Positions 8,934 to 33,581 of a stretch of DNA of 64,000 nt are shown piece by piece. Within the stretch, counting starts at the first letter, position 1, and every line of letters begins with the position of its first letter. The stretch is from NCBI GenBank assembly GCA_965213625.1, contig CBDBZU010000004.1, forward strand, positions 1,696,001 through 1,760,000. Direction: 5' to 3'. The notes under the pieces are model-generated. The model was given only the letters and a program-made list of their open reading frames with translations, was not told the DNA's origin and did not search any database. Origin of the DNA: a bacterium (GTDB lineage Bacteria; UBA8248). A program made the position numbers and the translations under genes.

Positions 8934-8970
8934 AAAAAACCCCGCCCGGGTATGGGCCCAGGCGGGGTTT
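8934..8970 (-). terminator. Rho-independent terminator after thiC
   Basis: AAACCCCGCC...GGCGGGGTTT stem followed by a T-run on the minus strand. Confidence 0.7.
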
Positions 8971-8997
8971 GGTGTGATGTGGTCGTTAGAGTTCGGC

Positions 8998-10791
<1,794 letters not shown>

Positions 10792-10899
10792 TCAGATTGG
10801 AATTCACCGGCTTCATACAGGAGAAGGATGAAGCTTTCCCCGCGCGATGAATTCTCTTTATTCACATGTGGCGAAGGGAAAACAGAGGATGTGGAAGAC

Positions 10900-10976
10900 C
10901 TGTCGCTTCCCTACGCCGGCGCTAACCGGTTCAGGTTCGAAGGGTTTGTTCTCAGCCTGCAAGGCACCCCCAGCGA
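10900..10976 (-). ncRNA. TPP riboswitch
   Basis: Minus strand GGGGTGC...GCTGAGA..ACCCTTCGAACCTGAACCGGTTAGCGCCGGCGTAGGGAAG upstream of thiC. Confidence 0.95.
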
Positions 10977-11240
10977 ACTTTCAATCTCGAAGATTAGCAG
11001 TCGTTACGCCGCGAGTCAAAAGGAAAACCATATGAGAAGGACGATTTTATCGACGTTTCCGGTGGCGGGGCGGAAATTTTGTTGTCATGATGGCGGCATG
11101 ATGATTCGGATGTTTATGAAATTACCTGGGCCAGGCCGCAACACCGGGAGCCTTTTCATACGATTACCGTTCTATTCCGGGCGGTTGTCCACGCCTTGGC
11201 GGTAGGCCCGATAGTTCAGGCAACGGATGAGAGAGGACGA

Positions 11241-13136: not shown

Positions 13137-13357
13137 GGCAGAACACGACTTGCACTTGGACGGAGTGGTATTCCGTGATGGGCGGAAGAAACTTGCTTTC
13201 TGTTACTTACGCGGTATATTTGTTGGTGGTTGGGGCTTTCTGACATCGATATCATATAACGGTTGATTAATTTTTCCGGAACCATGCTCCGTTACGGAGC
13301 GGTGTCGGCGTAGCCGACGTTTCTACCTTAAGTATGCTGCCTATGTGAGGTTTTTTC

Positions 13358-15277: not shown

Positions 15278-15548
15278 GTCTTTTCCTTCAATAGCATGAA
15301 GCTTTGCCCGATTTTCTGAGGTGCAGGGCGCATTTGCGGGGCCATGATAACCTGCAAATGAAAATTTTTTTCTTGAATTGAGAGGACCCGGGTGGAGAAA
15401 AGAAAATTCCCTTCGTTTTTCTCTGGAACTGAATATCTGGTAAAAGATTGATTTTGCAATTGCTAAACATTTTTTTCCGGCGCGAGGACCGATGCAGGGT
15501 ACGAATCATGTGGGGACGAATTTTTTGGATATCCACTTGGAATGTTTG

Positions 15549-15577
15549 TTGACAAAGACCATCATCTTCTCTATTCT
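15549..15577 (+). promoter_or_regulatory. Sigma70 promoter P1 (probable original porin promoter, overlapping attL)
   Basis: TTGACA-17 nt-TATTCT; now followed by element DNA rather than a gene. Confidence 0.7.
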
Positions 15578-16604
15578 TTTATCGAACAGACCGTATCTAA
15601 CATTTCCCGGTAAACCAAATATCCCTGCAATACACTGATTTTATATTATATACGGCGAATTATCGTCCTGTTTCAGCGTTTCTGGTTCTTCTCCCTTGAA
15701 ATGAGTAATCAAACCGCAAGCGGGTTCATTACAACCCCTGCGCGTCCCGGCGAGCGCGTGTCGGGGGAAGTGTCCGGCGGCGGGGTGACGGCGTTCGTTG
15801 CAGCGCTCTGGGAATTGCTTCCGGTTAGTCCGGAGCAACCGCTGCCGGACATCCATTGGGGTTTGCCGCATCGTCCGCGTCCCGGGGTGTTCCGGATGCC
15901 TGGAAACCCGGCGTCTTCCAGGCCGGCGCTTCGGCCCGCTCCCCCCGTGCCAAGGTCCCGCTCCCGCAGGAGGGCTCCCGAGCGGAAACGCGCCGACACC
16001 CGCCGGAAATACCCCTGAGAGAGTGTCCCCGCCGGCGCGAAGCAGCGCGTCCACAGCGCTTCGCCCCCCGGCCTTTGGCAGGGACACCCTCCGTGCGGCA
16101 TGGGCCGATATGCCGGTGTTCCGCATCTCTTTTTCATTCCCCGATGAAAGCGCCTGGACCAGAGCGCCGCCCCTCCCGGCAAGCGTGAAATGCCCCATTG
16201 GTCTTTCACGACATTCCCACGAGGAGTCGCCGGGAGGGACGACTTGCCGCTTGAACCCAGGCGGCACAGCACAAGGAGGAAATGCGCGCCTGAAGCGGCT
16301 GGTTCGCGTTTTTCGCGGTACGGTGTTTTCCCTGAATCTGTAGGGGTATCGCGGCAAATATACACCGCCGCCGGGTCTTGCTCAACGGCTCCTGCTCGCG
16401 CAAGGCCCCCTCGTCGTCCACGTCCCTCATCCATCCGCCGATTGACAGGAACCCTCGAGACGGCAGGTCGTGGTGGTCGACGTCATACCGCCGCCCGCCG
16501 GCGAAAGGTGGAGGCAGTGGAGAGTCGCCTGGGACTGAGGGTGCGGGGTGGAGAGAGGCCGCCGCGCCCATCCGCCATCGACCCACGACCCGGGAGGATT
16601 TTCC

Positions 16605-16952
16605 ATGACAAACCGAAAACCATCCGCTGCGGCGCACTTGATCGTTCTCGCTGGCCCCGCTCTCGCGCTGCTCTACACCCTTATCGCCATAAGCGGCGGG
16701 AGGGGCGTCCGCTTCATCTCCGCGGCCTGGCTCCTCGCCGCGCTCTGGACCATCGTCACCGCGCTCTCGGGCGCCCTGTGGCGGGCGTACCGCAGCGACT
16801 GGTCCGCCTTCACCTCCTACACCCTTCCCGAGAGGAACGAAGAACAATTCGACTGGGAGACCCGGACGGGGCGTTACTCCTGGCGGCGTGATTACGAGGA
16901 AGGCGAGATGTACGATGATGATTATCCCTACGGTCACGGCCCCATCGCCTGA
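16605..16952 (+). CDS. Small two-TM hypothetical membrane protein
   Basis: GGGAGG RBS; two hydrophobic segments and an acidic tail. Confidence 0.6.
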   Translation: MTNRKPSAAAHLIVLAGPALALLYTLIAISGGRGVRFISAAWLLAALWTIVTALSGALWRAYRSDWSAFTSYTLPERNEEQFDWETRTGRYSWRRDYEEGEMYDDDYPYGHGPIA

Positions 16953-17341
16953 GCGTCCGGAGGTTTCACTCTCTGCCGCGTAAGCGGCGGCACGCGCCCC
17001 GTACCCCGGCATACCCCCCTGCTTGTTCGCCGCGGCGTCCGGTCCTCTTCACGGACGCCCATATTATCCGAAATCAATCCGCCCGGAAGGGATTTCGATA
17101 GTGGATTTCCTGCACCTTGCCGCCGTATGCGCTCACGTCCACCACCCCCCGCGCCGGGACTTGATAAAAAAATACGCTAAGACAGGCGGCATCCCTCTTT
17201 TCCTCCACAGGCGCGCCCCGCCCCGCCGAGAGACAGAGCCGGGCCGGGAGGGGGCGGCGGAAGGGGTCCGGGAGGGAGCCTCTCCCTCTCCGGTCAATAC
17301 CGGTCGCCGCCATCATCCACCCATTCCAAGGAGGCCGCGCG

Positions 17342-17644
17342 ATGCGAAAACCAAAACCTGAAGCCGACACCTTCCTCACCCATCTCCTGGGCCCTGGCCT
17401 GGCCGATGAGCGATACGAGGTCAGGCGATACAAATCCGATGCCCGGGGCAGCATCAGGCCCGCGCCCTCTCCTGAGAGCGGTAAGCGCAAAAGAAAACGC
17501 GTGACGGCCTCGCGCCGTGTTGTCAGGGAGATGCGTCCCGCCCGGGACGAGCTCATCATTTGTACGGGGATCAAAATCCCCGGGAGCGGCCTGCAGCTGT
17601 GGGGCGAACACCTCGTGTGGGGGCGGATGATGAGCCGGGGATGA
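17342..17644 (+). CDS. Hypothetical protein
   Basis: AAGGAGG RBS before ATG; 100-aa ORF. Confidence 0.45.
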   Translation: MRKPKPEADTFLTHLLGPGLADERYEVRRYKSDARGSIRPAPSPESGKRKRKRVTASRRVVREMRPARDELIICTGIKIPGSGLQLWGEHLVWGRMMSRG

Positions 17645-17710
17645 ACCCGCAAGACGTCTGGCCGCCCCACTGCCGTCTACACGACTTCACCGACACATGA
17701 GGAAAATCCT

Positions 17711-18523
17711 GTGCCACACAAGAATCCGAAAATTCGACGCGAGAGAGAACGCGAACGCCACAGGCGGAGGACCGAATCGCGTAGAGCGCGGAGAGCTTGC
17801 CCGAAGTGCGGCGAATACCCTCCTGCACCCGGGCGAACTCTCTGCGAATCCTGCCTCGGTAAATCCCTGACCGCCGAACGCGCCCGATACGCCAAAGCCC
17901 GGGAAGAGGGGTTCCCATATGGCGGGAGAGACCCCGAAAGCCGCCGCCGCATGGCGCGCGAGAGGGCGAGAAAACGCAGGCGCGAGCGTCTCGAGGCCGG
18001 GCTCTGCACGGCTTGCGGCGAACGGGAACCCGCCGGGGGCGCAGCCGTCTGCGAAATCTGCCGGGAAGCGAGACGCGCGGCGGAAAAGAAGCTTTATGAA
18101 AAAAGGAGATCCTCCGGGCGATGCGGTCGTTGCGGAGGCGCCGTTATCGGCAAGGCTTCGACGTGCGCTTCGTGCGCCGAAAGGGAGGTGAAGCGCCGCC
18201 CAAAGAAGAACGCCGCGAGCAGGAAACGCTATCGCGACAGACGCGCCCTCGGGATCTGCGTGGACTGCCAATCATCCGAAACCAACGGAGCATCAAGGTG
18301 CGCTTCCTGCGCCTTGCGCTCCTGGCACTCCTCGGGCGAGCACAGGGGGATGCCGGTCTTTCCGCCGCGCTACACCGTGGTGGAACTCGAAACGGGCGCA
18401 GAACACGGCCCCCTCGACTCCTGGGAGGAGGTAGCCATGTGCCTCGCCTTCAAGAGGCTCTCCCGCGATGAAATCGAGGTGGTCGAGGACGCGCCCTTGA
18501 TTTCCGGGCTCGCCGGGTGGTGA
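17711..18523 (+). CDS. Basic Cys-rich protein with repeated CxxC zinc-finger-like units
   Basis: Four CxxC..CxxC units separated by Arg-rich helices; GAGGA RBS. Confidence 0.7.
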   Translation: MPHKNPKIRRERERERHRRRTESRRARRACPKCGEYPPAPGRTLCESCLGKSLTAERARYAKAREEGFPYGGRDPESRRRMARERARKRRRERLEAGLCTACGEREPAGGAAVCEICREARRAAEKKLYEKRRSSGRCGRCGGAVIGKASTCASCAEREVKRRPKKNAASRKRYRDRRALGICVDCQSSETNGASRCASCALRSWHSSGEHRGMPVFPPRYTVVELETGAEHGPLDSWEEVAMCLAFKRLSRDEIEVVEDAPLISGLAGW

Positions 18524-18674
18524 GCGTCGCCTGAGCCGGCACGGCGGGGGTACGTACCGCCGGCGGGCCGACGACCGAGGGGGAGGGTTCGCCGCCTCCC
18601 TGCTCCGCAGCCGTCCCGTCGACCTCAGGGCGTCTGCCGGAAGCGGCCTCGCCGGGGGGGAGTCTCCGGTCCGC

Positions 18675-19049
18675 TCAACGCCCGCGCCATTCCCGAGGCA
18701 AAGCGAGTCCCGGGCGGCGGGGCCTTCGCTCGACCCGCCAGGCCGCCACCCATGCCGGGAGAGAGAGCAGGAGCGACTGATCGCCTGTGGGCAGCGTACC
18801 TGAGAAGCCCGCGACTGCGGCGCCGCCGAGCGCGGCCCACGCCACTAGGGCGGGACCCGGATAGCCCGAGCGGGCGAGACGCTTACAGGCGAGCGCCAGC
18901 GGCATGCCGCACGGAGCAACCGCCACCAACTCCACGAGAGAGGCGGGCGCCATCATTCCGGACACGGACCCCACGCGCAGAACCTCTTCCGCCATAATTC
19001 CTCCCGGCAGCCACGACAGCGCCGGAATCCAGAATTTGAGACTGGCCAT
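18675..19049 (-). CDS. Hypothetical membrane protein
   Basis: AGGAGGAGG RBS before MASLKFW; hydrophobic. Confidence 0.45.
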   Translation of the reverse strand: MASLKFWIPALSWLPGGIMAEEVLRVGSVSGMMAPASLVELVAVAPCGMPLALACKRLARSGYPGPALVAWAALGGAAVAGFSGTLPTGDQSLLLSLPAWVAAWRVERRPRRPGLALPREWRGR

Positions 19050-19243
19050 GCCTCCTCCTTCCTCATGTCCGCGCGCCTTCTGACACGAATCCGCGGCAAA
19101 GGCAAGCGCCCTCCGCGAGCGCTCCCCGCCGGGTGAGAACCTCCCCGGGAGAGGTGAAGAGAAGCGGGGAGCCGGGCAAATGCCCGGTAGGGAGAGGGAG
19201 ACGGTCTCCAGTTCCCGCCGCCGGCGACAACCCGAGAGGAGGC

Positions 19244-19384
19244 ATGGCCATGTAGGAGAACGACTACGACGTCGACGTTCCCACCGCGGATGAGTTGCTC
19301 GCAGAACTCGGACTCGACGCGTACACGATCCGCAAGCTGCGCGACGAAGCGCAAGGCGAGGCGGAGGAGTTTTGCAGCGTCTAG
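19244..19384 (+). pseudogene. Small acidic ORF with early amber codon
   Basis: GAGAGGAGG RBS, ATG GCC ATG TAG then open frame ENDYDVDVPTADELLAELGLD... Confidence 0.45.
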
Positions 19385-19462
19385 GACGAACCGGGGGGGC
19401 GGGTGAGAGGATTCCCGGCTCCTCGACTTTATCATCCACACCACACTTCAAGGAGTATCAAA

Positions 19463-19903
19463 ATGGCATTCGGACTGAACCGTGCGGAACTGATCGGGCG
19501 TCTCGGCGCCGACGTTACCATCAACCATCTCGCGAGCGGGGGACGCGTCGCGAATCTATCCATAGCGACCGATGAGGGCTACGTGGACAGGCAGTCCGGC
19601 GATCGGGTGGAGAAAACAGAGTGGCATAGGATCGTGACATTCCAGCCGGGCCTGGTGGACATGCTCGAGAGGCACGCGAAGAAGGGTCGCCTGGTATATG
19701 TCGCGGGCAAGCTCCAGACCCGCCGCTGGAAGAAGGATGAGGAAGACTCGGATCGGTTCTCGACCGAGATCCTCATCGCGCCCGGCGGGGTCGTCCAATT
19801 CTTGGAAAAAATGAACGGGAACAACAACGGCAACGGCGCGCACCCCGAGACGGCCGACGTGGCGCCCACCGCGGGCGTAGTCGGGCAGGAGATTCCATTC
19901 TGA
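19463..19903 (+). CDS. ssb: Single-stranded DNA-binding protein
   Basis: LNRAELIGRLGAD, TEWHRIV, KGRLVYVAGKLQTRRW, C-terminal IPF. Confidence 0.95.
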   Translation: MAFGLNRAELIGRLGADVTINHLASGGRVANLSIATDEGYVDRQSGDRVEKTEWHRIVTFQPGLVDMLERHAKKGRLVYVAGKLQTRRWKKDEEDSDRFSTEILIAPGGVVQFLEKMNGNNNGNGAHPETADVAPTAGVVGQEIPF

Positions 19904-20276
19904 TCACCCCGGGGGGTCGGCGCCACGCGCCGGCTCCCCTTCTTTTTTGCTCCGGATCCCGAGGAGGCCCGGTATGCCCCGAACACCCTCTCCCGCGTCT
20001 TTCCCTCCCTGCCGGCTTCTCTCGTCTACCGGGAACACCCCATAAATCTCCGGTTCCGTGAACGGTAAACCATGTTCCCGGAAGATCGGCTTGCACCTGC
20101 AAGCACTCCATGCTCAAGGCAGTGGCTCAGTCTACCCCCCGCTGCGGAAATTTCGGGCCGAATAACGGCCCGAAATGACCCTTTCCGCAGCATGAGAGAT
20201 TGTTTCCCGATGAGCTTCGCCTTCATCGTGAAACACCAAAAACTCTTGTGTCCCGGTGGCGGTACTAGTGTCTCTC

Positions 20277-20506
20277 TCTTAGCGCCCTCATTTTAGCACG
20301 AACGCCGGGCGAATAAAGGGTGGCCGCAAGCGGCCATCATTTACCGGTGCCCCCCAAAAACGTCGAGCGGCAAAAAACAGGAGCGCCGCTCTATGAACCG
20401 TGTTTTTCGGGAACCCCCCGGAAAATGACAAGCCCTTGATTCGCCCGCCTACGGGCATCGGCAACACCGCCCGATGCCCTTACGTGTTGAAAATGAGGCG
20501 CTAAGA
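20277..20506 (+). promoter_or_regulatory. Long imperfect hairpin, Frpo/ssi-like single-stranded promoter candidate
   Basis: Nested complementary arms over ~230 nt with TTGATT and GAAAAT on the 3' arm, just upstream of DUF4326. Confidence 0.6.
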
Positions 20507-20541
20507 AGCGCATCCGTTAACTCTCTGGAAAGGAGAAAGGC

Positions 20542-20919
20542 ATGGAAACCACCGTGGTGAACCTGAACACATATGTCGATGAACCCGGCAGCGGCCTGCT
20601 GGTGAGGATCGACCGCATGACGAAGTGGGGAAACCCCTTCCGGCTCGGCGCCGACGGCGACAGCGACGCCGTCATCGAGAAATACCGGCGATGGCTGTGG
20701 GAAAAAATCCAGCGCGAGGAGCTCGACCTATACGAACTCGCCGACCTGCAGGGCTGCGAACTCGGCTGCCACTGCCACTGCCATCCCCTCCCGTGCCACG
20801 GCGATGTCCTCGCACGCGCCGCCGAGTGCGCAGCCAGGTATCTCGACGAGATGCCCAAAGAAGTAGGGCGCAACGAGCGTGGCTACGCTCTTCCCGAATT
20901 CAACCATCCCCTCGCTTGA
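20542..20919 (+). CDS. DUF4326 domain protein
   Basis: IDRMTKWGNPF...L.GCELGC.C.P.PCHGDVL signature. Confidence 0.88.
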   Translation: METTVVNLNTYVDEPGSGLLVRIDRMTKWGNPFRLGADGDSDAVIEKYRRWLWEKIQREELDLYELADLQGCELGCHCHCHPLPCHGDVLARAAECAARYLDEMPKEVGRNERGYALPEFNHPLA

Positions 20920-21008
20920 GGACAACCGAACCACCGGCTGAAAAACCCAATCACTGAAAGGAGTGAATGATGACTGCCTCCGCGACTCACGACCGCAAGG
21001 AGAGCACC

Positions 21009-21929
21009 ATGTACGAGAACGATCACAACGATGCCCAGCATGAATCTTTCACCGCCATGGTCTGCGAGCAGGCCGCACTATTCGGCGCGACACCGGGGCC
21101 GGACGAGTTCGACAACCGCCCCGTGTGGGACGAGGGCGAGGCAACCGCCGCCGTCATCAAGGCCTTCGGCGCACTCGCGGAAGCTGCGCCCGACGGCACG
21201 CAACTCGCGGATGAGCGAAGAAACCTCCTGTGGGGGTTCGTCAACACCCTCGACGCGCAGACACAACGCCTCGAGCGCGCCGCCGACAAACTCATCCCCG
21301 GCATCCGCGAACTGCAGCGCGAGCAGGACGGCTCCGAGATCAGGTCGCGCGAACTCGAACTCATGACCGACCGCGCCCAGAACCTGAACGACAGGCGCGA
21401 TGCGTTCGAGGGGCTCAGGGACACGGCCGCAGAGGCCTACCGCATCGAGACCGGCGAGGTATGGCGGCCGAGGCGAGGATCACACGTCTCACAGACCGGC
21501 AAACTGACCTCCGCCGTGATCGAGGCGCGCGACTTCCAGCGCGCCAGAAAGGACCGCGAGAACACCGCACACTTGCCGCAGGGAACTCTCGTCGCCGTCG
21601 CGGGAGGCAAGGAGGCGAGCGATGCGGGTAAAATCATCGCACACCTCGACCGCCTTAAGGCCAAGTACGCCGATGTCGTCCTCGTCCACGGCGGCGGCCC
21701 CGGTGCGGAGAAGATAGCGGCGGGATGGGCCGAGCGGAACGGCGTCAACCAGGTCGTGTGTAAACCGGATTGGGATGCCCACGGACGGGCCGCTCCCTTC
21801 CGCAGGAACGACGAACTCCTGGCACTCCTGCCCAAGGGCGTGATCGCGTTCCCCGGCAGCGGCATCACCGACAACCTCGTCGACAAGGCAAAAACCCTCG
21901 GCATCCCCGTCCAGAAAATCGTCGCCTGA
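21009..21929 (+). CDS. DUF2493 / YspA-cpYpsA SLOG-family protein
   Basis: C-terminal VAVAGG, LVHGG, AAPFRRND, AFPGSGIT; N-terminal coiled coil; AAGGAG RBS. Confidence 0.82.
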   Translation: MYENDHNDAQHESFTAMVCEQAALFGATPGPDEFDNRPVWDEGEATAAVIKAFGALAEAAPDGTQLADERRNLLWGFVNTLDAQTQRLERAADKLIPGIRELQREQDGSEIRSRELELMTDRAQNLNDRRDAFEGLRDTAAEAYRIETGEVWRPRRGSHVSQTGKLTSAVIEARDFQRARKDRENTAHLPQGTLVAVAGGKEASDAGKIIAHLDRLKAKYADVVLVHGGGPGAEKIAAGWAERNGVNQVVCKPDWDAHGRAAPFRRNDELLALLPKGVIAFPGSGITDNLVDKAKTLGIPVQKIVA

Positions 21930-22598
21930 TGCGGGAGCTCAACGGGTCGCGTCGCCCGGCGGCGCGGCCCGTTCTTCTCCTCCTTCATTTGCCGCTGTAC
22001 TTGCCTCCCCGTATTACTCTCCTCCTCTCCTCTCGCTCAGTCGCCGCGGCGGCTCCCGTTCGCCATCTTCTCCGGCGTCGATTCCCCTGTCGCTTGTCCC
22101 ACGGATTCGACCATCTGACGCCCTTCGGCGCTTCGGGTTACACACCGGAACGCAGCAGGCTGCGAAGTTCCGGCATACGACGACCGGGCTACTCTCCCGT
22201 CTCATGTCGGCGACACAGGGCGCCAGGCGCATTGCGGATCGAGCGTATGCTCAGAGCATACACAATCTTTCTCATCCCTGACGGCGCATGGCTGCGCAAG
22301 TCGCGCATGGATACCGGATCCGTCGCAATCGGTGGCGTTCCGTAATACAATGTGTTACGGCCCGCATTACGTTAGTATGCTTCCGATTCTGGCCGTTTCG
22401 CGGTGCGCCGGGGCCGCCACCTGTGCGGAGCGCTCTCTCGCAGATGGCCGCAAGCCCCTGAATACGGGACGTTGAATCGAGCGTAGACGGTCCCGGATAC
22501 GCCCTGATTTTCGCCCCGAACCAAGCCGTCGGAACCCGGAAAGGGCGAGCGATGCGGTCCGTATCGCCACCCGATCTTGTCCTGAGGAAGAGAAAAAG

Positions 22599-22985
22599 AT
22601 GACGCGAAACGACCCGAATCAGCCCGAAAAGAGCAAAAAATCAGCGGAAAAACCGGGCGAACCGAGAGCGCCGCACTCGGTTCGCTTCACCGGTTCGGAA
22701 TGGAAATTGATTAAACGAGCCGCCGAACTGCACGGTATTGCGGCCGGTGAACTCGTCCGCAACGGCGCGATGGCCGCTGTCGAGGAGCTGCTCGACGAGC
22801 CTCCAGAGGCCACCCTGTCGCATGGTCATGCCGCCCTCATCGAGTCCGTCTACCGCATGGTCTACGTGATGGCGACCCTGGATCGGGGACGATTGATCGA
22901 CGCCGGGCGCGGGAAAGAGCTCGAGGACCTCATCGCCGCGGCGCACAGAACGATGGCCGAGACCATGGACGAAGGCACAGGGTGA
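22599..22985 (+). CDS. Ribbon-helix-helix-like DNA-binding protein
   Basis: HSVRFTGSEWKLIKRAAELHGI..GELVR pattern resembles RHH/MobC-type regulators. Confidence 0.55.
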   Translation: MTRNDPNQPEKSKKSAEKPGEPRAPHSVRFTGSEWKLIKRAAELHGIAAGELVRNGAMAAVEELLDEPPEATLSHGHAALIESVYRMVYVMATLDRGRLIDAGRGKELEDLIAAAHRTMAETMDEGTG

Positions 22986-23298
22986 ATGCAGAGGGCGGCG
23001 CGATGCGTGCGTAAGCCGGTTTATCGGTTGCAAATTTGTTGCAAGAACCCGCGAATCGGGCCCGGTCGGACCGCGTTCAGAGCCCCAGGTCCATCTCGAT
23101 CCGCTTCCCGGGGCCGGGTTCGGGTGTCTTCGCGTGCGGCGTTTCCCGTCCGTTTTTCATGCCCGGGGAAGAGGAATCGGAGAGTCCATTCGGGTAAAGT
23201 CCAGATTGCACGGCAACCTTTCGGCCAAAGACACTTGAACACGGAACATTCCGAAGCCCGCTTCAAGAATGTCTCCAACTTGTGTTGCCGGCTTCTGT

Positions 23299-23318
23299 GT
23301 ATTATATTTATATATAAC
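23299..23318 (+). promoter_or_regulatory. Probable pemIK operator palindrome
   Basis: AT-rich dyad TTATAT-TTAT-ATATAA immediately before the antitoxin RBS. Confidence 0.55.
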
Positions 23319-23330
23319 TTGGAGGATTTC

Positions 23331-23588
23331 ATGCACACGACAAATCTGCGCAAAGTCGGTGGTTCCATCATGCTAGCCGTTCCACCTGCCCTTCTTGACC
23401 TCCTGAAACTCGGGGTCGGCGCGAAGGTGGAAATAGACGTGGAGGACGGTCGCCTGATCGTCGAGCCCAAAGCACGTCCCGTCTATTCACTCGATGAGCT
23501 TCTCGCGCAATGCGTAGAGACCTCTACGCAGCCCGCCGAGGACCGCGCCTGGATTGAGGCCAGACCAGTTGGCAAAGAGTTGTTGTAG
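23331..23588 (+). CDS. pemI: PemI/MazE-family antitoxin
   Basis: MHTTNLRKVGGSIMLAVPP AbrB fold; YSLDELLAQC; ends GKELL. Confidence 0.9.
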   Translation: MHTTNLRKVGGSIMLAVPPALLDLLKLGVGAKVEIDVEDGRLIVEPKARPVYSLDELLAQCVETSTQPAEDRAWIEARPVGKELL

Positions 23589-23920
23589 TGAAGCGGGGTG
23601 AAATCTGGCTCGTCAGCCTCGACCCCACCGCAGGCCATGAACAACAGGGTACCCGTCCGGTACTGATCGTATCCCCAGACCCGTTCAATAGACTCACCGG
23701 GACGCCCGTGGTCTTGCCGATCACATCGGGCGGCGACTTTGCGCGCAGGGCAGGTTTCGCAGTTTCTCTCTCGGGCGCGGGTACCCGAACAACCGGTGTC
23801 GTCCGTTGCGACCAGCCGAGGTCCCTTGATCTCGCTGCCCGCAACTGGGCGCGTCTCGAAACCGTTCCTGAACTTATTATGGACGAAGTGCTTGCCCGAA
23901 TCGCCACCATCCTCGAATAA
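23588..23920 (+). CDS. pemK: PemK/MazF-family endoribonuclease toxin
   Basis: RGEIWLVSLDPTAGHEQQGTRPVLIVS, PITSGG, CDQPR. Confidence 0.92.
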   Translation: MKRGEIWLVSLDPTAGHEQQGTRPVLIVSPDPFNRLTGTPVVLPITSGGDFARRAGFAVSLSGAGTRTTGVVRCDQPRSLDLAARNWARLETVPELIMDEVLARIATILE

Positions 23921-24354
23921 AAAGTGATTGTTCGTCTTCAAGGCCGGACGGCACTTATCAGTGATTTCCCGTTTCGGGTCCCAGTTCTTGCGAATAACGC
24001 TAATTTGCCAATGCAATAGAGGGAGCGGCACCGATTGGCTTAATCGGTCCTGGTTCAGGGAGAGGTGAGGAGCGAAATTTCGTGCCTTGGAGCGTCAGGT
24101 GGGAAGATCGGTAAACGTAATGAATGTGATCGTACGTCAGCTTCATTTTTTTCTCCTGTTGGGTATGGATGAAAAAATTGGGGAATTGTAACCCAAAGTT
24201 GACAAGATTTTTAGGATAAATATCTACCCCGCTATTGGACTATTTCTACAGAGCGCCTGGCCTTTTTGTACTCGACATTCAAACGATGTACCGTCTTAAT
24301 CAACTCGGAAGACTTGCCGAAAACTACGAACATCAACTTATTTTTCCAATGGAT

Positions 24355-24729
24355 TGCAGTTGAAAAACTTCCATGAGGAAGCCTTTTTTGATCCGTTCGA
24401 TGCACCACCATGATAAGAGCTTCAAATTCTTCGGCGGGTAGATTCTGGATTTCATCAATCAAGATGATGATCGAAGATTTGCGCGCCTTCGCTGCCTCGC
24501 CCGCGGCGACAAACACCTCGGCAAAATCACGGGCTAGCGTGCCGCTGTCGGCAACTCCTGGTTCACCATCTATGTCTAAGAAAAATTCAATATCCTCAAC
24601 CTTGATCTTGACCGCACCAACAAAACTCTTTAGAACGCGCAAACTCCTTTTTACATGTTCACTAACCCCCTTGATTCGATCAAGCTTCAGCAAGATCGAG
24701 CGCAAAGTGGCAATAATCGTTTTCGACAA
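24355..24729 (-). pseudogene. Internal fragment of an AAA+ ATPase
   Basis: Walker B IILIDEIQ but no Walker A or start; runs into an IS-end-like TTTTTCAAC motif. Confidence 0.6.
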
Positions 24730-25218
24730 AATTCGTTCGTGCTGATTTCGATAAAGTCTGTGAGTGCGTATTCTTTAGATTTTGTTTGGAGGTGTAGCTA
24801 TTGAACTCAAGAGGAATTGAGAAGGGCTATAAGTCTTAGTGAATCAGAATCAATGCCTACTTGGTTGCCGGTTTCAGATACAGCATAACGTGCTCACCGC
24901 TCAATACAAGATATTGATTTCACTTCGTCATGTGTATAATCACGGATAAAATCGCGGAGTCTACTGGTGATGGGGTTCAATACGAGCGTCGGCGCCTTCG
25001 TATACTTGATCGAATACCATCACCTGAAAGCCGGAGTTTCTATTGATTTATTGGTCAGGCTCGGAAGTGAAGCGGTGAAATTGAAGTTCCTGGTGCACAC
25101 AGCTATCGATGCTCGAGGACGTTAAATGTATGACCCGAGTCGTCCAATACGGCGTGTTAATTCGCAAGTCGTCTGGTGGTACTAGAGAAACACGAGCAAC
25201 TGACGAGGAGGTGACTTC

Positions 25219-25518
25219 ATGAACCCCAAAATAACCATACCGAAACCCGCGCTTTCCGCCTTCTGTCGGGAGAACGGTATCCGCCGGCTTTCCGTCTTCG
25301 GCTCGGCCTTGGGTGAGGATTTTGGACCCGGGAGCGATATAGACCTTCTCGTCGAATTCGAGCCGGAAGCTAGAATCGGCTTCATGAAACTGGCCAGGAT
25401 GCAAAGGGAGTTGGCGGCCATCATTCACCGCAAGGTGGATCTGGTTCCCCAAGATGGATTGAAGCCGAAAATACGAACGGAGGCGCTTTCGGGCGCGGAA
25501 GTGATCTATGCGGCGTGA
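25219..25518 (+). CDS. MntA-type minimal nucleotidyltransferase antitoxin
   Basis: VFGS.....F..GSDIDLLVEF, RKVDLV; GGAGGTGA RBS. Confidence 0.9.
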   Translation: MNPKITIPKPALSAFCRENGIRRLSVFGSALGEDFGPGSDIDLLVEFEPEARIGFMKLARMQRELAAIIHRKVDLVPQDGLKPKIRTEALSGAEVIYAA

Positions 25519-25864
25519 GGAACTCTACCTCGCCGACATGCTGGAGGCTGCGGACGCCATCGGCCGATTCCTTCTGGAAACCGAGCAACATTCGTTCATC
25601 GCGGACGACCTGCTGCGTAGCGCCGTCCTGCATAAATTGGCGGTCATCGGCGAAGGAGCAACCCGGTTGTCCGATGCGTTTCAGGCGCGCCATCCCCAAA
25701 TCGAATGGGGAGACATCGTGGCGTTTCGCAACATCATCGTTCACGCCTACTTTTCTGTGGATTGGCCTATCGTCTGGGTGACGGCGACACAGGACGTTCC
25801 GGAACTTCGGCGCGGAATCGCCCGGATACTTGCGGAAGAATACCCCGACTGGGAAGCACGGTAA
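25508..25864 (+). CDS. HepT-like HEPN (DUF86) ribonuclease toxin
   Basis: IGE, FRNIIVHAY (RX4HXY); overlaps the MNT gene. Confidence 0.9.
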   Translation: MRREELYLADMLEAADAIGRFLLETEQHSFIADDLLRSAVLHKLAVIGEGATRLSDAFQARHPQIEWGDIVAFRNIIVHAYFSVDWPIVWVTATQDVPELRRGIARILAEEYPDWEAR

Positions 25865-26196
25865 CCTTCCTCGAGCCGCGCAGAAACAATAAACGGCATG
25901 GAACCAGATGGGCGCGAAGGGGAGAACAATCTAGTCAGGCGGATATGTCGTCCCGCCCCTGAACTCTCAAACGCCCTTGTCCGCAGGTGTGGTGACTCCG
26001 ATTTCTCCGCGCAGGAGGCGCCTGAAGGTGGCCCGTCGCCACCCGTTCCTGCACCGGGCGATCCTGCGTCCGACGCGGTTCCGCCTGCCGGCGGGCATCG
26101 AAGCCGAGCGCCCGTCGATCCAAGAGGTATATTCCGCTTGGCGCTGCTCGATGAGCGAAACCCGGCCGTCCCGTTGATGCGGCGTTTCGAGGAGAA

Positions 26197-27035
26197 TTGA
26201 CACGCGAACAGCGCGCTGCCACAGATTCCCTGTTCGCGCACGAGACCGGCGTAAGTGCCGCCGCGTCCGGGTTCGGCAAGACGGTCGTCGCAGCATTGAT
26301 GATAGCTGAGCGCGGCGTGAAGACGCTCATCCTCGTTCATCGCCGCCAGCTGATGATGCAGTGGATTGCGCGGCTTGGTGTTTTTCTCGATCTTACTACT
26401 TCCGCCATCGGACGGGCCGGGGGCAGGAAACGCAAGCTTAGCGGGGTCATAGACGTCGCCACGCTCCAGAGTCTGGAGCGCAAAAACGTGGTGGACGACC
26501 TCGTCGCCGACTACAGGCACCTCGTGGTCGACGAGTGCCACCACTTATCTGCGGTGAGCTTCGAGGTGGTGGCGCGCCGCGCCAGGGCGAGGTACGTGCT
26601 CGGGTTGTCTGCGACCATCATGCGCAAGGAGCACGCCGGGGAACTCGCCGGGAAGATCGGGCGCTTCGCGCGAAACGTCCTGCTCTTCAGAGGCGGCATG
26701 GAAGAGAGAGCGCCGCGAGATCATGCAGCGCCTGGAAGACATACCCGACGGCGAGGAGCGGGTACTGGTCGTGACCGGCCGCTATATCGGAGAGAGATTC
26801 GACGATGTCCGCCTCGACATGCTGTTCCTCGCGATGCCCGTGTCGTGGCGGGGAACGCTGGCCCAGCACTTCGGCCGCCTGCACCGGCTCCATTCAAAAA
26901 AACGCGAAGGTGCTAGTCTACGAATATATCGACGACGCGGTGCCGGCGCTCAGGCGTTATGGGCGGCAGTCGCGTCAAGGGCTACGAGAGCCTCGGCTAC
27001 ACAGTCGAGTGGCCCGGCGTCCCAAGCGGAACGTG
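26197..27035 (+). pseudogene. SF2 DEAD/DEAH (ResIII-like) helicase remnant
   Basis: GFGKT, DECHH, LSAT in one frame; TGRYIGE.FD..LD.LFL and GRLHR in a second; VYEYID in a third; internal deletion after LSAT. Confidence 0.8.
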
Positions 27036-27449
27036 AACTTACAGGCCCGGGCGAGTATGGCGCTGACGTTATTACGGTCGCGTGATCCGGACAAGGTGAA
27101 GATATAGGCCTGCCTGACGGCGGCAGGCGATCTCAAACGGTTCAGTGCCGCTCATTTTTCTAGGTTATGTACCCCTTGGAGGGCTCTTGCATCAACTGGA
27201 ATCGCCGTACGAATATCCATGAAGCTTACAAACCCCACGGTCTCGATCTACCTGAACCCAAGTAATACAAACCGTTCCGAACCCAATTCCTCACCTTATT
27301 TCATAAAGCAGGTGGTTTATGTACGTGGGGCAGTCCTTGGGAGGAGCTGCCACCTGCGAATCAATCATTCTCTTTGGGCCTACTCCCCCACCCCTGCATA
27401 AATATATCCTTGTCCTGAGGCGAGGAATGCTTCAAAGAACTCCACACAC

Positions 27450-27478
27450 AAAAAACCGGGGGGCCGAAGCCCCCCGGT
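27450..27478 (-). terminator. Rho-independent terminator of the element porin
   Basis: ACCGGGGGGC-TTCG-GCCCCCCGGT plus T-run; same hairpin as at 33355. Confidence 0.88.
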
Positions 27479-27519
27479 CGTCATCGCGTCAGGTAAGGAC
27501 TCGAGCGTCCTTCATGCTG

Positions 27520-28746
27520 CTAGAATGAATGCCTCAACCGCCAGCTGACCACCCACCCGTCATCGGGCTCAGTCGCGTTGGCCGCTCTGCCGTAGTCGCC
27601 GCGCAGGATGACGGCGCCAACAGCGCGAAGCTCGGTACGCGGATGTATTTTCCACTTGAAGCCGGCGTTGAGCTCGGTGCCGAATTCCTTGGAAGTATCC
27701 ATATTATCTCCGGGATGACTTTCTGCGGAGTTGTAAACGGATACGCCACCACCCAGCGAAAATGTTTTGCTGATCTTGTACTCGCCTATTCCCTCGAGCA
27801 CAACCGCGCCGTTCAAATTTTTCAAAGTAACGTCTTTCAGATCGTTATTGATACTATCCCAGCGGCGCGAACTCATGATGTGAGAACCGTGGAGCCAACC
27901 GGAACCATTGTTTTGAGGGAAATGGAATTTACCCGTTTCGCCGTCTTTGCCTTCGTCATCGCCGGAGAGCATCGTGAGGTTGCCCTCGAGTTTCAGCTTG
28001 CCCAGGCTTGCGGAAGTCCTCACCAAGACGGCCCATCCCGAAAGATCCGTCCCTCCATCGAGCTCACCATCCTGGCCGACGACCGAGGCGTTCAAGTTGA
28101 AGATGCCTACCTTGCCCTTGGCGTGGAGACCGAAGAAGCTGTAGTCATAACCGTTATTCGCTCCGTTTCTGGAATTGGCCAGCCAAGGAGAGAGCGTGAG
28201 AGTGGGCGACACTTTGACGCCCACGCTGGCATAGTAATCCTCTTTATCGGCGTTGGCTTCGCTCTTGTCTTCACTAGCCTTGACATAAAACATGCTGAGC
28301 GACATGTTCTTGCTGAGCTTGCCATAGACCCCGACGCCCGGCTCGCGAGTCCGTCCGCCGCTGTCGTAGATTTCCTTATCTGGCGAGAAGCGATCCCAAC
28401 GGCCCCAACGCATGCGGAGCGTGCTGCCCGGGATCGCGAAGTCGATCGCCCAGCGGTTCACACCTAGGGTCTGACGACTGGCATTGGTGAAACCGCCGTG
28501 CGGGCTTTGAAATTCGGGCTCCCACACGGTTGTGACTGCGCCGCTCTTCACCGTGAATCGCGGGCGGATGAGCGCTTCGAGGTAATTATCCTTGTCGTCT
28601 GCGTCATCGTCCCCGTCTTTGTTGGCGTTATTGCTGGTGCCGCGCACCTGATAGAGACCGGTCATCTTGAAGTCGGCCGCATACGAGGGCAAGGTGAATG
28701 ACAAGACGAGCGCCATCGCAAATAGAGCTAACAGAATTTTCCTCAT
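27520..28746 (-). CDS. Outer-membrane beta-barrel porin, element-borne allele
   Basis: Signal peptide ending SYA, amphipathic beta strands, C-terminal W.LRHSF; colinear homolog of 32084-33313. Confidence 0.82.
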   Translation of the reverse strand: MRKILLALFAMALVLSFTLPSYAADFKMTGLYQVRGTSNNANKDGDDDADDKDNYLEALIRPRFTVKSGAVTTVWEPEFQSPHGGFTNASRQTLGVNRWAIDFAIPGSTLRMRWGRWDRFSPDKEIYDSGGRTREPGVGVYGKLSKNMSLSMFYVKASEDKSEANADKEDYYASVGVKVSPTLTLSPWLANSRNGANNGYDYSFFGLHAKGKVGIFNLNASVVGQDGELDGGTDLSGWAVLVRTSASLGKLKLEGNLTMLSGDDEGKDGETGKFHFPQNNGSGWLHGSHIMSSRRWDSINNDLKDVTLKNLNGAVVLEGIGEYKISKTFSLGGGVSVYNSAESHPGDNMDTSKEFGTELNAGFKWKIHPRTELRAVGAVILRGDYGRAANATEPDDGWVVSWRLRHSF

Positions 28747-29001
28747 GTGTATTTCTCCTCATCGAGGTTTCAAAAAAATGTTGCCGCCTTCCTTCGTTTT
28801 AATGTCCTGATTGTTCGATGCTTCTGAATCTGTGCTTCGTCGCCTGAAACAGGGCTTCCCGCTCTCACATCACCCCCTCTCTTCAATACTGCCCCGTACG
28901 TCGACAAGGTTCTATCGAGCGATCTGATAATTGCCGCTTATGTAGACACTATCCCATTAGTAAAAATAGTCATTCCATTCTTCATTTCTCAAAAGAATAG
29001 A
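28720..29001 (-). repeat. 282-bp inverted repeat, copy 1 (core site, -10 box, leader, first porin codons)
   Basis: Reverse complement of 31829-32110 with no mismatch seen by eye. Confidence 0.93.
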
Positions 29002-29278
29002 AAAGATATGATTTAAAAGCTAAAACGCCGACAATCATGCGCATGGATGCGCTCATGCATGATAAATACATGTTTTTAATTTATTTATAATTACACTTTC
29101 TTCCGCGTTGCCTCTTGCGCCATCGCCAGATTTGTGCTGGAATGCGCTCTCAGTTGATGCGGGACGTATGCGTTATGATGACGTATTTTGACGGGAGCGC
29201 CGCACCGGAGCATGCGGATGGGCGTTCCCGCAGACCGCCGCAGGCATGCGGTTTGATGACACACCGGAGGGAGGAACC

Positions 29279-30463
29279 ATGCCGAGGAGAAGCGAATTCA
29301 GGCTCACCAAGCGCGCCGTCGACGCGCTCGAAACCGAACGCCGCGACGCCCTGTTCTGGGACCGGGATCTGGCCGGATTCGGGGTGCGCGTCCACGCCAC
29401 GGGACGGAAGGTTTTTGTCGCGCAATCGAGAGGCCCCAGGGGGATAAAACGCGTGACCCTGGGCCGTGACGGGGAGATGTCGTGCGAGGAGGCGAGGAGG
29501 CAGGCCGCCATCGTCATCGACCGCATTAAAAGCGGCGAGGACCCCGTCCCGAAGCCGCCTGAGGCGGAACCCACCCTGGGGGAGATCGCCGAACGCTTCA
29601 TGAGCACATACGTGGAGAGGCGCCTCAAGCCGGGCAGCGTCGTGGAGTACCGCACCATGCTGGACAAATACATCCTGCCAGCCCTGGGCGGGATGGCGCT
29701 GTCCGAGGTCAGGCGGGCGCAAATCTCCGCGTTTCATCACGGCATGCGCGGCATGCCGAGCCGGGCGAACACGTCGCTCCACGTCCTCTCCCGGATGCTC
29801 AGCCTGGCCGAGGCGTGGGACCTCATCCCGCCCGGACGGAACCCGTGCAGGGGAGTGCCGCTCTACAAGACGCGCTCGCGCGAGCGGTTCCTGACGACGG
29901 AGGAATACCGCCGCCTGGGCCGGACGTTAAAAGAAGCCGAGGCGGACGGCTCGATCTGGTCGCCCGCGATCAAGGCGATCCGGCTGCTCATGCTGACCGG
30001 ATGCCGGAGGAACGAGATACTGAACCTTAAGTGGGACGATGTGGACCGCACGGCGGGCGTTCTGAGGCTCAGGGACGCCAAGGCGGGCCCCCGCATGGTT
30101 CCCCTGACGAATCCCGTGCTGAGGGTTCTCGAGACGCTCCCCCGGAAGCGGGGCGAGCCATGGGTGATCCCCGGGCAGAACCCGGGCCAGAACCTGCGGA
30201 GCCTTCACTACTACTGGCGGCGCATACGGGAGCGGGCGGGTCTCTCCGACGTGCGGATCCATGACCTGCGCCATTCGTTCGCTTCGCGTGCGCTTGCGCT
30301 GGGCGAGAGCCTCTACACGATCGGCAAGCTTCTGGGACACGCGACGGTGCCGACGACGGCGCGCTACACGCACCTGATGCTCCGGGCCGAGAAGGATGCG
30401 GCCTCCCGTGTGGGGGGAAGCATCGGCGTTCACCTGACGAACGAGAAGGAGGAACTTGAATGA
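29279..30463 (+). CDS. Tyrosine recombinase/integrase 1 with arm-binding domain
   Basis: WD..LAGFGVRV N-terminus; TGCRRNE, DAKAG, HDLRH, LLGH, TTARY catalytic set intact. Confidence 0.95.
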   Translation: MPRRSEFRLTKRAVDALETERRDALFWDRDLAGFGVRVHATGRKVFVAQSRGPRGIKRVTLGRDGEMSCEEARRQAAIVIDRIKSGEDPVPKPPEAEPTLGEIAERFMSTYVERRLKPGSVVEYRTMLDKYILPALGGMALSEVRRAQISAFHHGMRGMPSRANTSLHVLSRMLSLAEAWDLIPPGRNPCRGVPLYKTRSRERFLTTEEYRRLGRTLKEAEADGSIWSPAIKAIRLLMLTGCRRNEILNLKWDDVDRTAGVLRLRDAKAGPRMVPLTNPVLRVLETLPRKRGEPWVIPGQNPGQNLRSLHYYWRRIRERAGLSDVRIHDLRHSFASRALALGESLYTIGKLLGHATVPTTARYTHLMLRAEKDAASRVGGSIGVHLTNEKEELE

Positions 30464-31629
30464 AGAAGCCGGGCACGATGGTGCTGTCGAGCCGGATGGT
30501 GGAGAAGTTTGCCGTGGAAAAAGACACGGTGTACTGGGATAGTTACGTCACCGGCTTCGGCGTCAGGGTGTATCCGAGCGGGAGCAAGGTCTACATCGCC
30601 CAGGCGCGGGGGCCCGGGGGGCCGAAGCGCGTGACGATAGGCCGCCACGGGGTGATCAACGCGGATGAGGCGAGAAGGCGCGCGGCGCTCGTCATCAATC
30701 GCATCAAGTCGGGCGAGGAGGGGGTTCCAAAACAGACGAAGCCCGTGCCCGGTCCCACGGTGGCCGAAGCCGCCGCGCGGTATCTCGCCGAATACGTGGA
30801 GGTGCGCTGTAAGCCGCACACCGCCGCCATGACCCGGTCGCTACTCGGAAGACGCATCTTGCCCGCCCTGGGCGGGACGCCGCTCGCGGTGGTGGAGCGC
30901 GCGCAGGTGGCGGAACTGCACCAGAGCATGCACGAGACGCCCCCGACGGCGAACAGGACAGTCGGCATCCTCTCCGCGCTATACCGGTATGCCGAGAGGT
31001 GGGGCCTCATTCCCGAGGGAGCGCCGAACCCCTGCCGCGCCGTCGTCAAATTCCCCAAGCGACAGGGGGAGCGTTTTTTGACGGATGAAGAGTTCATCCG
31101 CCTGGGACGCACACTCGATGAGGTGGAGAAAAGCAAGCCGAAGTACGCGAACGCGGTGGCGGCGATCAGACTTCTGGCCCTGACGGGGTGCCGGAAGTCG
31201 GAAATCCTCACCCTGCGCTGGGAGAACGTGGCGCTGGAAGAGGGGGAATTGAGACTGCCCGATTCCAAGACGGGCGCCCGCGTGATATCGCTCCCGCCGC
31301 AGGCGGTCGCTCTCCTGGCCGCCCTGCCCCGGGAGGAAGGGAATCCCTGGGTGATTCGCGGCAGGAAGCCGGGCGTTCGCCTGATGAATATCTATGGCGT
31401 TTGGCACTACGTCCGAGCGCGGGCGGGTCTCGATGACGTGCGCCTCCACGACCTCCGCCACTCGTTCGCGTCCAGAGCGCTCGCGCTGGGCGAGAGCCTT
31501 CCGATGATCGGCAGGCTCCTGGGGCACAGCCGCATTGAGACCACGGCGCGCTACGCGCACCTAGCGCGCGATACCGCGTACGAAGCGGCCGAGCGGGTTG
31601 CGGCGAGCATCGAGAAAGACATACTATGA
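30460..31629 (+). CDS. Tyrosine recombinase/integrase 2 with arm-binding domain
   Basis: TGCRKSE, DSKTG, HDLRH, LLGH, TTARY; ATGA overlap with integrase 1. Confidence 0.95.
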   Translation: MKKPGTMVLSSRMVEKFAVEKDTVYWDSYVTGFGVRVYPSGSKVYIAQARGPGGPKRVTIGRHGVINADEARRRAALVINRIKSGEEGVPKQTKPVPGPTVAEAAARYLAEYVEVRCKPHTAAMTRSLLGRRILPALGGTPLAVVERAQVAELHQSMHETPPTANRTVGILSALYRYAERWGLIPEGAPNPCRAVVKFPKRQGERFLTDEEFIRLGRTLDEVEKSKPKYANAVAAIRLLALTGCRKSEILTLRWENVALEEGELRLPDSKTGARVISLPPQAVALLAALPREEGNPWVIRGRKPGVRLMNIYGVWHYVRARAGLDDVRLHDLRHSFASRALALGESLPMIGRLLGHSRIETTARYAHLARDTAYEAAERVAASIEKDIL

Positions 31630-31806
31630 GAGGCAATCGACGGGGTGGACGAAAAGAACCGGACTGGCCGGGTTCGTGTGCTCGTTTTTTTGAAATTTTC
31701 AGATTCGGGGTTTGACGAATCAGTCTATCTTCGCTAATACTATGTCTATGTGGAATAGGGTGACTGATTCCGAAAGATTTCTTTTCGGATTCAGGTGGGA
31801 AGTTTG

Positions 31807-31836
31807 TTGACAAAATATAAATTTTCGATCTATTCT
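31807..31836 (+). promoter_or_regulatory. Hybrid sigma70 promoter P2 driving the resident porin (overlaps attR)
   Basis: TTGACA-18 nt-TATTCT; GTTTGTTGACAAA shared with P1. Confidence 0.72.
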
Positions 31837-32110
31837 TTTGAGAAATGAAGAATGGAATGACTATTTTTACTAATGGGATAGTGTCTACATAAGCGGCAAT
31901 TATCAGATCGCTCGATAGAACCTTGTCGACGTACGGGGCAGTATTGAAGAGAGGGGGTGATGTGAGAGCGGGAAGCCCTGTTTCAGGCGACGAAGCACAG
32001 ATTCAGAAGCATCGAACAATCAGGACATTAAAACGAAGGAAGGCGGCAACATTTTTTTGAAACCTCGATGAGGAGAAATACACATGAGGAAAATTCTGTT
32101 AGCTCTATTT
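31829..32110 (+). repeat. 282-bp inverted repeat, copy 2
   Basis: Matches reverse complement of 28720-29001. Confidence 0.93.
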
Positions 32111-33313: not shown

Positions 33314-33354
33314 CAATATGACGGACCTTCGCGTTCTCACTTGACGCGACGACG

Positions 33355-33385
33355 ACCGGGGGGCTTCGGCCCCCCGGTTTTTTTT
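33355..33385 (+). terminator. Rho-independent terminator
   Basis: ACCGGGGGGC-TTCG-GCCCCCCGGT-TTTTTTT. Confidence 0.9.
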
Positions 33386-33581
33386 GTATGGAAATATTTG
33401 CGACGGCATTACGCTGCAGGGACAGGCCTACGTGCCTGTCTTGATGAAGGCCTTCTTGCCGATGAAAGCGAAGGACAACCACTGAATGTTGTCCCTAAAG
33501 GACCGGACCAGGAATCACGAAGGGCAGGACAGCCCGAAAGGGTTATCCCTACGCCTGCCTTCTGGCGCTGGTTGCATATTT

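Follow-up and report, generated by a model that had tools for sequence, protein, structure and literature searches.

Organisation of the locus

We describe a mobile element lodged in the promoter of a porin gene, within a 64,000-nucleotide stretch of bacterial DNA (hereafter the window: positions 1,696,001 to 1,760,000 of contig CBDBZU010000004.1 in assembly GCA_965213625.1, GTDB lineage UBA8248). Comparison with related genomes identifies positions 15570 to 31839 of the window as a chromosomally integrated mobile element (16,259 bp, counted from one repeat to the other), which carries its own cargo (15581–27432, +), a second porin gene (porin A) and a pair of integrase genes. On its left lies an FG-GAP/VCBS-repeat gene (13358–15277, +; Pfam FG-GAP_3, E 2.3e-19; syntenic in relatives), followed by a region, U (15278–15548, +), that aligns with the same region in relatives lacking the insert and forms the ancestral upstream part of the porin promoter; on its right lies the resident porin gene (porin B).

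An 11-mer, TCTATTCTTTT, hereafter the core, occurs three times at this locus. Two copies stand on the plus strand (15570–15580 and 31829–31839), each behind the 13-mer GTTTGTTGACAAA (15544–15556 and 31802–31814), with TTGACA and TATTCT 17 nt apart in the left-hand copy and 18 nt apart in the right-hand one. The first pair of boxes constitutes P1 (15549–15577, +), the resident promoter, whose -35 now faces the element; the second constitutes P2 (31807–31836, +), in which the -35 (31807–31812) is borne by the element. Each scored 10 of 12 in a promoter scan. The third core lies on the minus strand (28991–29001), inverted relative to the other two; identified by its match to the 11-mer, it lacks a -35, is fused to the region upstream of the first integrase gene and was not called as a promoter by the same scan. 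An initial annotation of this DNA had picked out the direct composite repeat with its promoter-like spacing and proposed that the element brings a replacement -35. The coordinates of the repeat hold, as does the placing of that -35 at promoter spacing; the annotation's account left out the inverted core, porin A and the 2.8-kb segment that appears able to flip.

Within the 4.15-Mb genome, the 13-mer occurs twice, both times at this locus, and the 11-mer four times, three of them inside the window, while TTGACA-N16–19-TATTCT is found only at the two composite sites. One hundred shuffles of the window gave on average 0.05 copies of the 11-mer and 0.00 of the 13-mer, and none contained three or more 11-mers, placing the repeat far beyond chance. 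Because all three patterns are so rare in the genome, the composite repeats are not a genome-wide promoter consensus.

The 2,827-bp segment between the inverted cores (29002–31828, +) contains the int1 upstream region (29002–29245), int1 (29246–30463, +), int2 (30460–31629, +) and a terminator-like site (31669–31684). Its int2 end holds the only -35 near either porin; at its int1 end there is no -35 and the scan called no promoter. Both integrases match Phage_integrase (PF00589; E 7.6e-24 for int1, 4.1e-21 for int2) and Arm-DNA-bind_3 (E 2e-11 and 1.4e-07 in the pair) in Pfam, with further matches to Phage_int_SAM_3 and Phage_int_M. They are about 390–405 amino acids long, about 50% identical to one another and both P4-like, and their closest solved relatives are XerD, XerC and XerA. 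Catalytic motifs (GCRRNE/GCRKSE, HDLRH, GH and RYTHL/RYAHL, with residues assigned by eye in the translations) are present in both. The two genes possess the domains that define tyrosine recombinases and P4-type integrases, and judged from their translations they are tandem, catalytically complete P4-type tyrosine integrases. In run X5, from one of the two samples, we noted a contig with one extra base exactly at the 29001/29002 junction, a variant at the presumed exchange point.

Outside the inverted cores, the two porins face one another as arms of a long inverted repeat. The left arm (27433–29001, −; inverted-repeat pairs I1–I5) comprises a terminator (27454–27479), porin A (27520–28746, −) and its leader (28747–28990, −); the right arm (31829–33400, +) comprises the leader of porin B (31840–32083, +), porin B itself (32084–33313, +) and a terminator (33354–33379). 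The repeat stops exactly at the core, and the terminator that the terminator scan found in each arm is strong. The arms are identical for their first 281–282 nt, that is, through the leaders, whereas the gene bodies are about 75% identical (69% between the encoded proteins). This contrast, seen also in the relative G014, shows recent gene conversion and is not proof of site-specific exchange. Porin A thus has the same leader as the resident gene and adjoins a core without a -35.

Both porins have a signal-peptide-like N-terminus and a C-terminal F, and an AlphaFold model built from 18 homologues is a barrel of 18 long strands (pLDDT 77, pTM 0.75) whose best Foldseek matches are AlgE, the C. 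jejuni MOMP and OprD/Occ channels (TM about 0.6–0.7); a signal peptide, a C-terminal aromatic residue and a 16–18-strand barrel are the marks of outer-membrane porins. The NCBIfam model NF033939 (DESULF_POR1) gave 49–50 bits against a curated cut-off of 250, over the N-terminal half only and with E about 1e-13, from which the proteins are best seen as distant relatives of that family of homotrimeric porins, not members of it. Searched by sequence against solved structures, porin B returned no match, and the genome contains no further porin paralogue at E < 1e-3.

Empty sites and the point of insertion

Searches of 41 genomes, together with two collection scans, supplied the 17 related loci examined here. 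Eight of them (G002, G004, G008, G014, G022, L027, L029 and L031) have an empty site, in which the FG-GAP gene is followed by U, the promoter, the leader, the porin and an aminotransferase gene. In another seven (G011, G012, G013, G016, L025, L028 and L034), an integrase pair stands immediately ahead of U and the promoter, and in one more, G020, the pair points the opposite way; the last, L035, begins inside U and is uninformative.

Homology between the window and the empty sites is unbroken as far as 15579 (against G002) or 15580 (against G008) and restarts at 31802, with the promoter alone doubled relative to these two genomes. The spacer of P1 is of the type found in empty sites, whereas that of P2 is of a different type, common only to G020; the exchange therefore lies within the 11-mer and not within the 13-mer. 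To the right of P1, from 15581 onward, the DNA bears no likeness to the porin leader, which excludes homologous exchange via the porin repeat as the origin of this junction. None of the eight empty sites joins at other coordinates. The element is thus delimited as genomic islands are, by direct repeats at its two ends and by relatives in which the flanks are joined at the 11-mer. These results support the proposal of the initial annotation that the first and third cores (15570–15580 and 31829–31839) behave as attL and attR, and the empty site that it had predicted (FG-GAP/VCBS gene, promoter, leader and porin, in that order) is the one that we find. Crossover at attL would fall within 15570–15580, with the same junction in G020, and at attR within 31829–31839, which is also the right-hand site of the candidate inversion.

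The same annotation had reported dyad symmetry in the attB and attP junctions obtained by excising the element by hand. We recovered arms of 5 nt in the attB-like and 6 nt in the attP-like hybrid, compared with merely 2–3 nt in the integrated junctions as they exist. With random flanks and some freedom of spacing (20,000 trials), arms of at least 5 nt arose in 6.5% of trials, arms of at least 6 nt in 2.0% and both together in 0.24%, which favours the att-site reading and is not decisive. Another candidate for a recombinase site, a helix predicted by RNA consensus folding between the -10 box and bases of the leader, was rejected: no likely transcript would begin far enough upstream to include it, and as DNA its true complementarity is limited, in most species, to ATTC/GAAT.

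That the insert is an integrative element, as initially annotated, is borne out by its kin, a multi-copy mobile family with tandem integrases. The integrase pair and the cargo module recur in at least eight further places in the genome, at nucleotide identities of 70–74% for the pair and 75–86% for the module. At those copies the gene order is int1–int2 and then the module, an order that arises at this locus only by joining 31839 to 15581, that is, in the predicted circle. Among the eight integrase pairs in the genome, this one alone is flanked by inverted repeats, and a repeat search around the other seven found no convincing direct or inverted att repeats. From the gene order and the conservation of the int1 upstream region comes the idea that the usual attP of the family may be located upstream of int1.

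An orthologous element with a flipped segment

When the first 900 bp of the element (15581–16480) were used as a query, one full-length match was found among the 40 other genomes, in the sister species G020. There, genes for ThiC, a TPR protein and the FG-GAP protein (89.5% amino-acid identity) are followed by U, P1, the core and the same element DNA, and positions 8936–18562 of the window align with G020 as one contiguous block (87.6%) that crosses the P1 junction. Because G020 shares this P1/attL junction, the insertion is, on the alignment, orthologous and predates the split of the two species. The G020 element is longer, at about 35 kb, and holds other cargo: a diverged FG-GAP copy, a remnant of an insertion sequence (IS) and a different second porin.

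The far end of the G020 element consists of the second porin, a core, the -35, int2, int1, the int1 upstream region, another core, the leader and porin B, in that order. With the flanks aligned, the inter-core segment of G020 (2,831 bp) matches ours at 94.2% as its reverse complement, against 50% in the same orientation. It follows that the whole segment was inverted, from one inverted core to the other, in one lineage or the other. In consequence, the int1 upstream region adjoins porin B in G020 and the -35 adjoins the other porin. Beside the core, the arms in G020 share only nine identical bases. The locus of the window has the features of an inverton, namely inverted repeats on either side of a recombinase-bearing segment with a promoter element, of which only the -35 half travels on the segment; both orientations exist between sister species in an orthologous element, while contigs conceal the orientation within any one population.

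The second FG-GAP copy in G020 (L013, L046 and L047) is 78.7% identical to that of the window at the amino-acid level and has part of U behind it, and the IS remnant is IS110-like; together they suggest that flanking DNA was captured from another lineage.

A related lineage with a different entry site

Integrases 69–78% identical to those of the window occur in G011, G012, G013 and G016. In these genomes, a block consisting of a spacer, an opposite-strand second porin, its leader, the core, the int1 upstream region, int1 and int2 is inserted between the stop codon of the FG-GAP gene and U. The element is flanked there by an imperfect direct repeat of 36–38 nt derived from the 3′ end of the FG-GAP gene, not by the core. 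Because the G011-type elements entered at this 3′ end, integration into the -10 box, which the initial annotation had presented as the element's targeting preference, is a trait of the lineage of the window and G020 and not of the whole family.

Both lineages, and a second locus in G014, have a porin whose sequence joins the int1 upstream region at TCTATTCTTT: homology breaks at TCTATTCTTT in all seven such junctions (window, G020, G011, G012, G013, G016 and the second locus of G014). In the G011-type species, the segment bounded by the inverted cores carries the chromosomal -35 and U, and a flip there would have an equal effect. The porin bodies of G016 and G013, at 70–85% identity, are too diverged for porin exchange by double inversion to be judged.

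In G014 (L021/L022), whose resident locus is empty, the second porin lies about 21 kb away, beyond thiC. Its leader is about 99% identical to the resident one, and at the core the porin runs directly into an int1 upstream region; a 3.6-kb insert holding two large open reading frames (ORFs) separates the porin from the integrase pair. Recombination between the inverted cores of this genome would turn around thiC, the TPR gene and the FG-GAP gene together with the segment.

Proposed mechanism and alternatives

We consider it fairly probable that the locus is an integrative element combined with a half-promoter inversion switch between two porins. On this reading, the element entered by site-specific exchange inside the core, within which lies the -10 hexamer of the resident promoter. 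As a result, element DNA now lies before the chromosomal -35 (P1), and the -35 at the end of the element (P2, with a spacer of 18 instead of 17) faces the resident leader and porin B, so that the porin may continue to be expressed under the control of the element. One or both integrases would bind around the core and exchange strands within it. Since the inverted cores bracket the segment running from int1 through int2 to the -35, exchange between them would flip that segment, moving the -35 to porin A and leaving the int1 upstream region before porin B; from two direct cores and one inverted core, further states would be within reach, for example porin A behind P1. The comparisons above provide three cores, an insertion at the core, one flip and, as far as sequence can tell, a promoter of full geometry before just one of the porins of each locus. 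The integrases presumably catalyse both integration and inversion at the core, the porin copy without a -35 is probably silent or weak, and the flip may be reversible and still occurring.

Several points weigh against this mechanism. In the G011-type lineage, the core beside int1 is evidently not the integration site. The flipped orientation is found in only one of nine integrase-bearing porin loci (G020), which may mean that flips are infrequent, or that there was one flip long ago. A 1-nt insertion in the attL core of G020 could be a sign of an element in decay and no longer mobile. Within each of the two leaders is a less strong promoter-like site, TTGAGA-18-TATTTT (9 of 12 in the promoter scan), which could drive both porins whatever the -35 and so blur the ON/OFF logic. 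No attB, attP or inversion joints were found among the contigs of four sequencing runs, which end at the repeat borders, drop rare forms and contain a 281-nt identical leader that masks orientation in short sequence. Finally, a perfect inverted repeat of 282 nt is sufficient for RecA-dependent inversion without any integrase.

From this last point follows the alternative that survives best, and which we regard as unlikely: the element did integrate into the -10 box but nothing switches, porin A merely travels along as cargo, and the difference in G020 reflects one accidental homologous inversion across the leader repeat. The 281–282 nt of perfect inverted identity, the solitary flipped locus and the lack of heterogeneity in the run contigs all fit such an event, and the similar sap architecture of Campylobacter fetus is RecA-dependent. 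It sits poorly, however, with the finding that homology ends at the same 10–11 bp in every lineage, and with the use of that same sequence as the attL/attR crossover, where no flanking homology exists. The nine bases shared by the G020 arms beside the core also tell against it, as does the retention of a porin without -35, the core and the int1 upstream region as a unit across integrase lineages about 25–30% apart.

It is very improbable that the three 11-mers are merely the conserved -10 box of paralogous promoters, brought about by duplication and unrelated insertions with no recombination at the 11-mer. The -10 box and leader are indeed conserved in all 19 aligned porin upstream regions, and the 11-mer occurs once elsewhere in the genome; yet neither porin nor leader lies behind P1, insert-free relatives join exactly at the 11-mer, the insert belongs to a mobile-element family with integrases at its end, and the flipped segment of G020 ends at the cores. 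An assembly artefact, in which the repeated leader caused a false join or orientation, is scarcely credible: the leader repeat does exceed short-read words and the run contigs break at 28972 and 31858, but each junction is covered by a contig of its own in all four runs (14800–16600, 28972–30613 and 30645–31858; maybe from the same source as the assembly), and the same architecture appears in independent assemblies of six other genomes. Three small extra contigs of the assembly, considered as alternative forms of the locus, proved unrelated to it and were rejected.

A more elaborate version of the integration-and-switch mechanism is possible, though we think it rather doubtful. In it, one 10–11-bp site in the -10 box would serve for entry, the strong host -35 would be left before element DNA, and the cassette of -35 and integrases would go on flipping between the porin of the host and an imported porin allele, making a three-site 'half-promoter shufflon' whose integrases divide integration and inversion between them. 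A division of labour, with one integrase for entry and the other for flipping, is weakly suggested because int1 (74–78% identical) and int2 (69–72% identical) differ in their conservation between the lineages with different entry sites. If the shufflon were real, the element would alter the main outer-membrane channel of its host cell, for example so as to exclude phages or rival elements or to change how an animal host recognises the cell.

Across species, porin bodies at this locus are 42–91% identical to porin B in amino-acid sequence, against 88–96% for the neighbouring aminotransferase and PGDH genes, which fits strong diversifying pressure on the protein. The resident porin allele itself varies by species, being A-like, B-like or of a third type.

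Comparison with known systems

The element resembles P4-type integrase islands in having an Arm-DNA-bind_3 integrase at one end, short direct repeats, an empty site in relatives and restoration of the function that it disrupts. It differs in its target, which in those islands is a tRNA gene or the 3′ end of a gene and here is a -10 hexamer, the restored part being a -35, and also in possessing two tandem integrases and a third, inverted internal site.

Among inversion systems, the sap S-layer locus of C. fetus has an invertible promoter segment between opposed paralogues that share a conserved 5′ region, and its inversion depends on RecA. In both cases, a promoter element would be inverted between oppositely oriented surface-protein paralogues, changing which is expressed; in sap, however, the whole promoter moves, whereas here only the -35 half would do so, the -10 box is where the repeat stops, and the segment carries recombinase genes. 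Classical invertible promoters such as fimS and hin combine inverted repeats with a nearby recombinase and follow an ON/OFF logic. The present locus shares these traits with them and with the invertons of Bacteroides and Clostridioides. In those systems, a few hundred bp hold an entire promoter that switches one operon on or off, in contrast to the 2.8-kb segment here, which has the -35 only and would swap it between two genes.

The vsa and vpma loci of Mycoplasma are surface-antigen inversion systems of the same kind as mba. In mba of Mycoplasma/Ureaplasma, according to PMC3047005, site-specific inversion at short repeats close to the 5′ ends of genes alternates the expression of neighbouring surface proteins, and more than two sites are possible. 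All three are chromosomal, with sites downstream of the promoter or inside genes, unlike the present site, which lies within the promoter on a mobile element that it integrates.

Adjacent tyrosine recombinase genes on a mobile element are also known from Tn554 (two recombinases), RIT elements (three) and GInts (three plus GinD). PMC3414803 reports that both recombinases of Tn554 are required, and PMC5385486 defines GInts by ginABCD, encoding three integrases and a small helix-loop-helix protein, with all four gin genes required. Tn554-type pairs have a long N-terminal extension that the present pair lacks. Nor is the pair a RIT, for which three tandem recombinases are needed: only two genes stand between the cores, and 31630–31828 gave no further ORF match. 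As for GInts, the segment has two integrases and no fourth gene, and no third recombinase or ginD-like gene was recognised with the pair.

The individual parts are familiar; what is new is a crossover inside the -10 hexamer, a -35 as the movable or replaceable part and a single site for entry and switching. A search of titles, abstracts and full text in the open literature found no description of a crossover between a -35 and the transcript start, and nothing on this locus in Nitrospinota metagenome-assembled genomes. Placing the crossover within the promoter makes promoter halves into exchangeable modules. If active, the element would bring the transcription of a host surface protein under its own control without shutting it off, and exchange the protein for an allele of its own. 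For uncultured organisms, this would offer a rare, directly testable case of surface variation, and a 10-bp core with two integrases makes a compact, portable experimental substrate.

Cargo, leader and neighbouring features

Cargo was identified from Pfam and PHROGs matches, from its 75–86% nucleotide identity to the other genomic copies and from codon-phase substitutions. Its recognisable genes encode an SSB protein (19403–19903), a DUF4326 protein (20542–20919), a YAcAr/SLOG protein (20967–21929), MazE/MazF (22986–23920), MNT/HepT (25219–25864) and a helicase fragment (26197–26916). An ORF conserved among the element copies (17711–18523, +; 270 amino acids) contains many CxxC pairs in repeated zinc-ribbon-like units; its substitutions cluster at third codon positions, and it found no match above the cut-off in Pfam and none in NCBIfam or PHROG. 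Across the first 1.7 kb or so downstream of P1 (15581–17300) there is no convincing coding signal, despite which the DNA from 16476 onward is 83% identical to another copy of the element (c1977k).

The palindromic repeat of the cargo, from 15705, belongs to a motif of about 60 nt with an imperfect 26-nt palindrome around CCGCAAGCGG (15705–15767), 125 nt inside the left end of the element. The motif occurs at six other sites in the genome (C4 76790–76964, 211631, 219694, 316880, 3248319 and 3427205) and at up to 11 sites in related genomes. No protein starts at it, and it may serve as an origin of transfer or of replication, or be a REP-like repeat. Beside two of the element copies (C4 15717–18314 and 4111802–4114399), tblastn revealed three tandem recombinase-like frames, which are possibly RIT-like.

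The porin leader, about 250 nt long, is strongly conserved in the genus, with conspicuous blocks GAGAGGGGGTGATG.GAGAG and CGGCAACATTTTTT and a predicted long-range helix, GTCGACGTACGGGGC...GCCCTG..GACGAC. No Rfam family matched it, and only two of 37 predicted pairs show compensatory change among 19 related leaders; it may be a cis-regulatory RNA. Further left, upstream of thiC (8998–10761, −), lies an ordinary TPP riboswitch (Rfam RF00059, 72 bits; 10891–10981, −).

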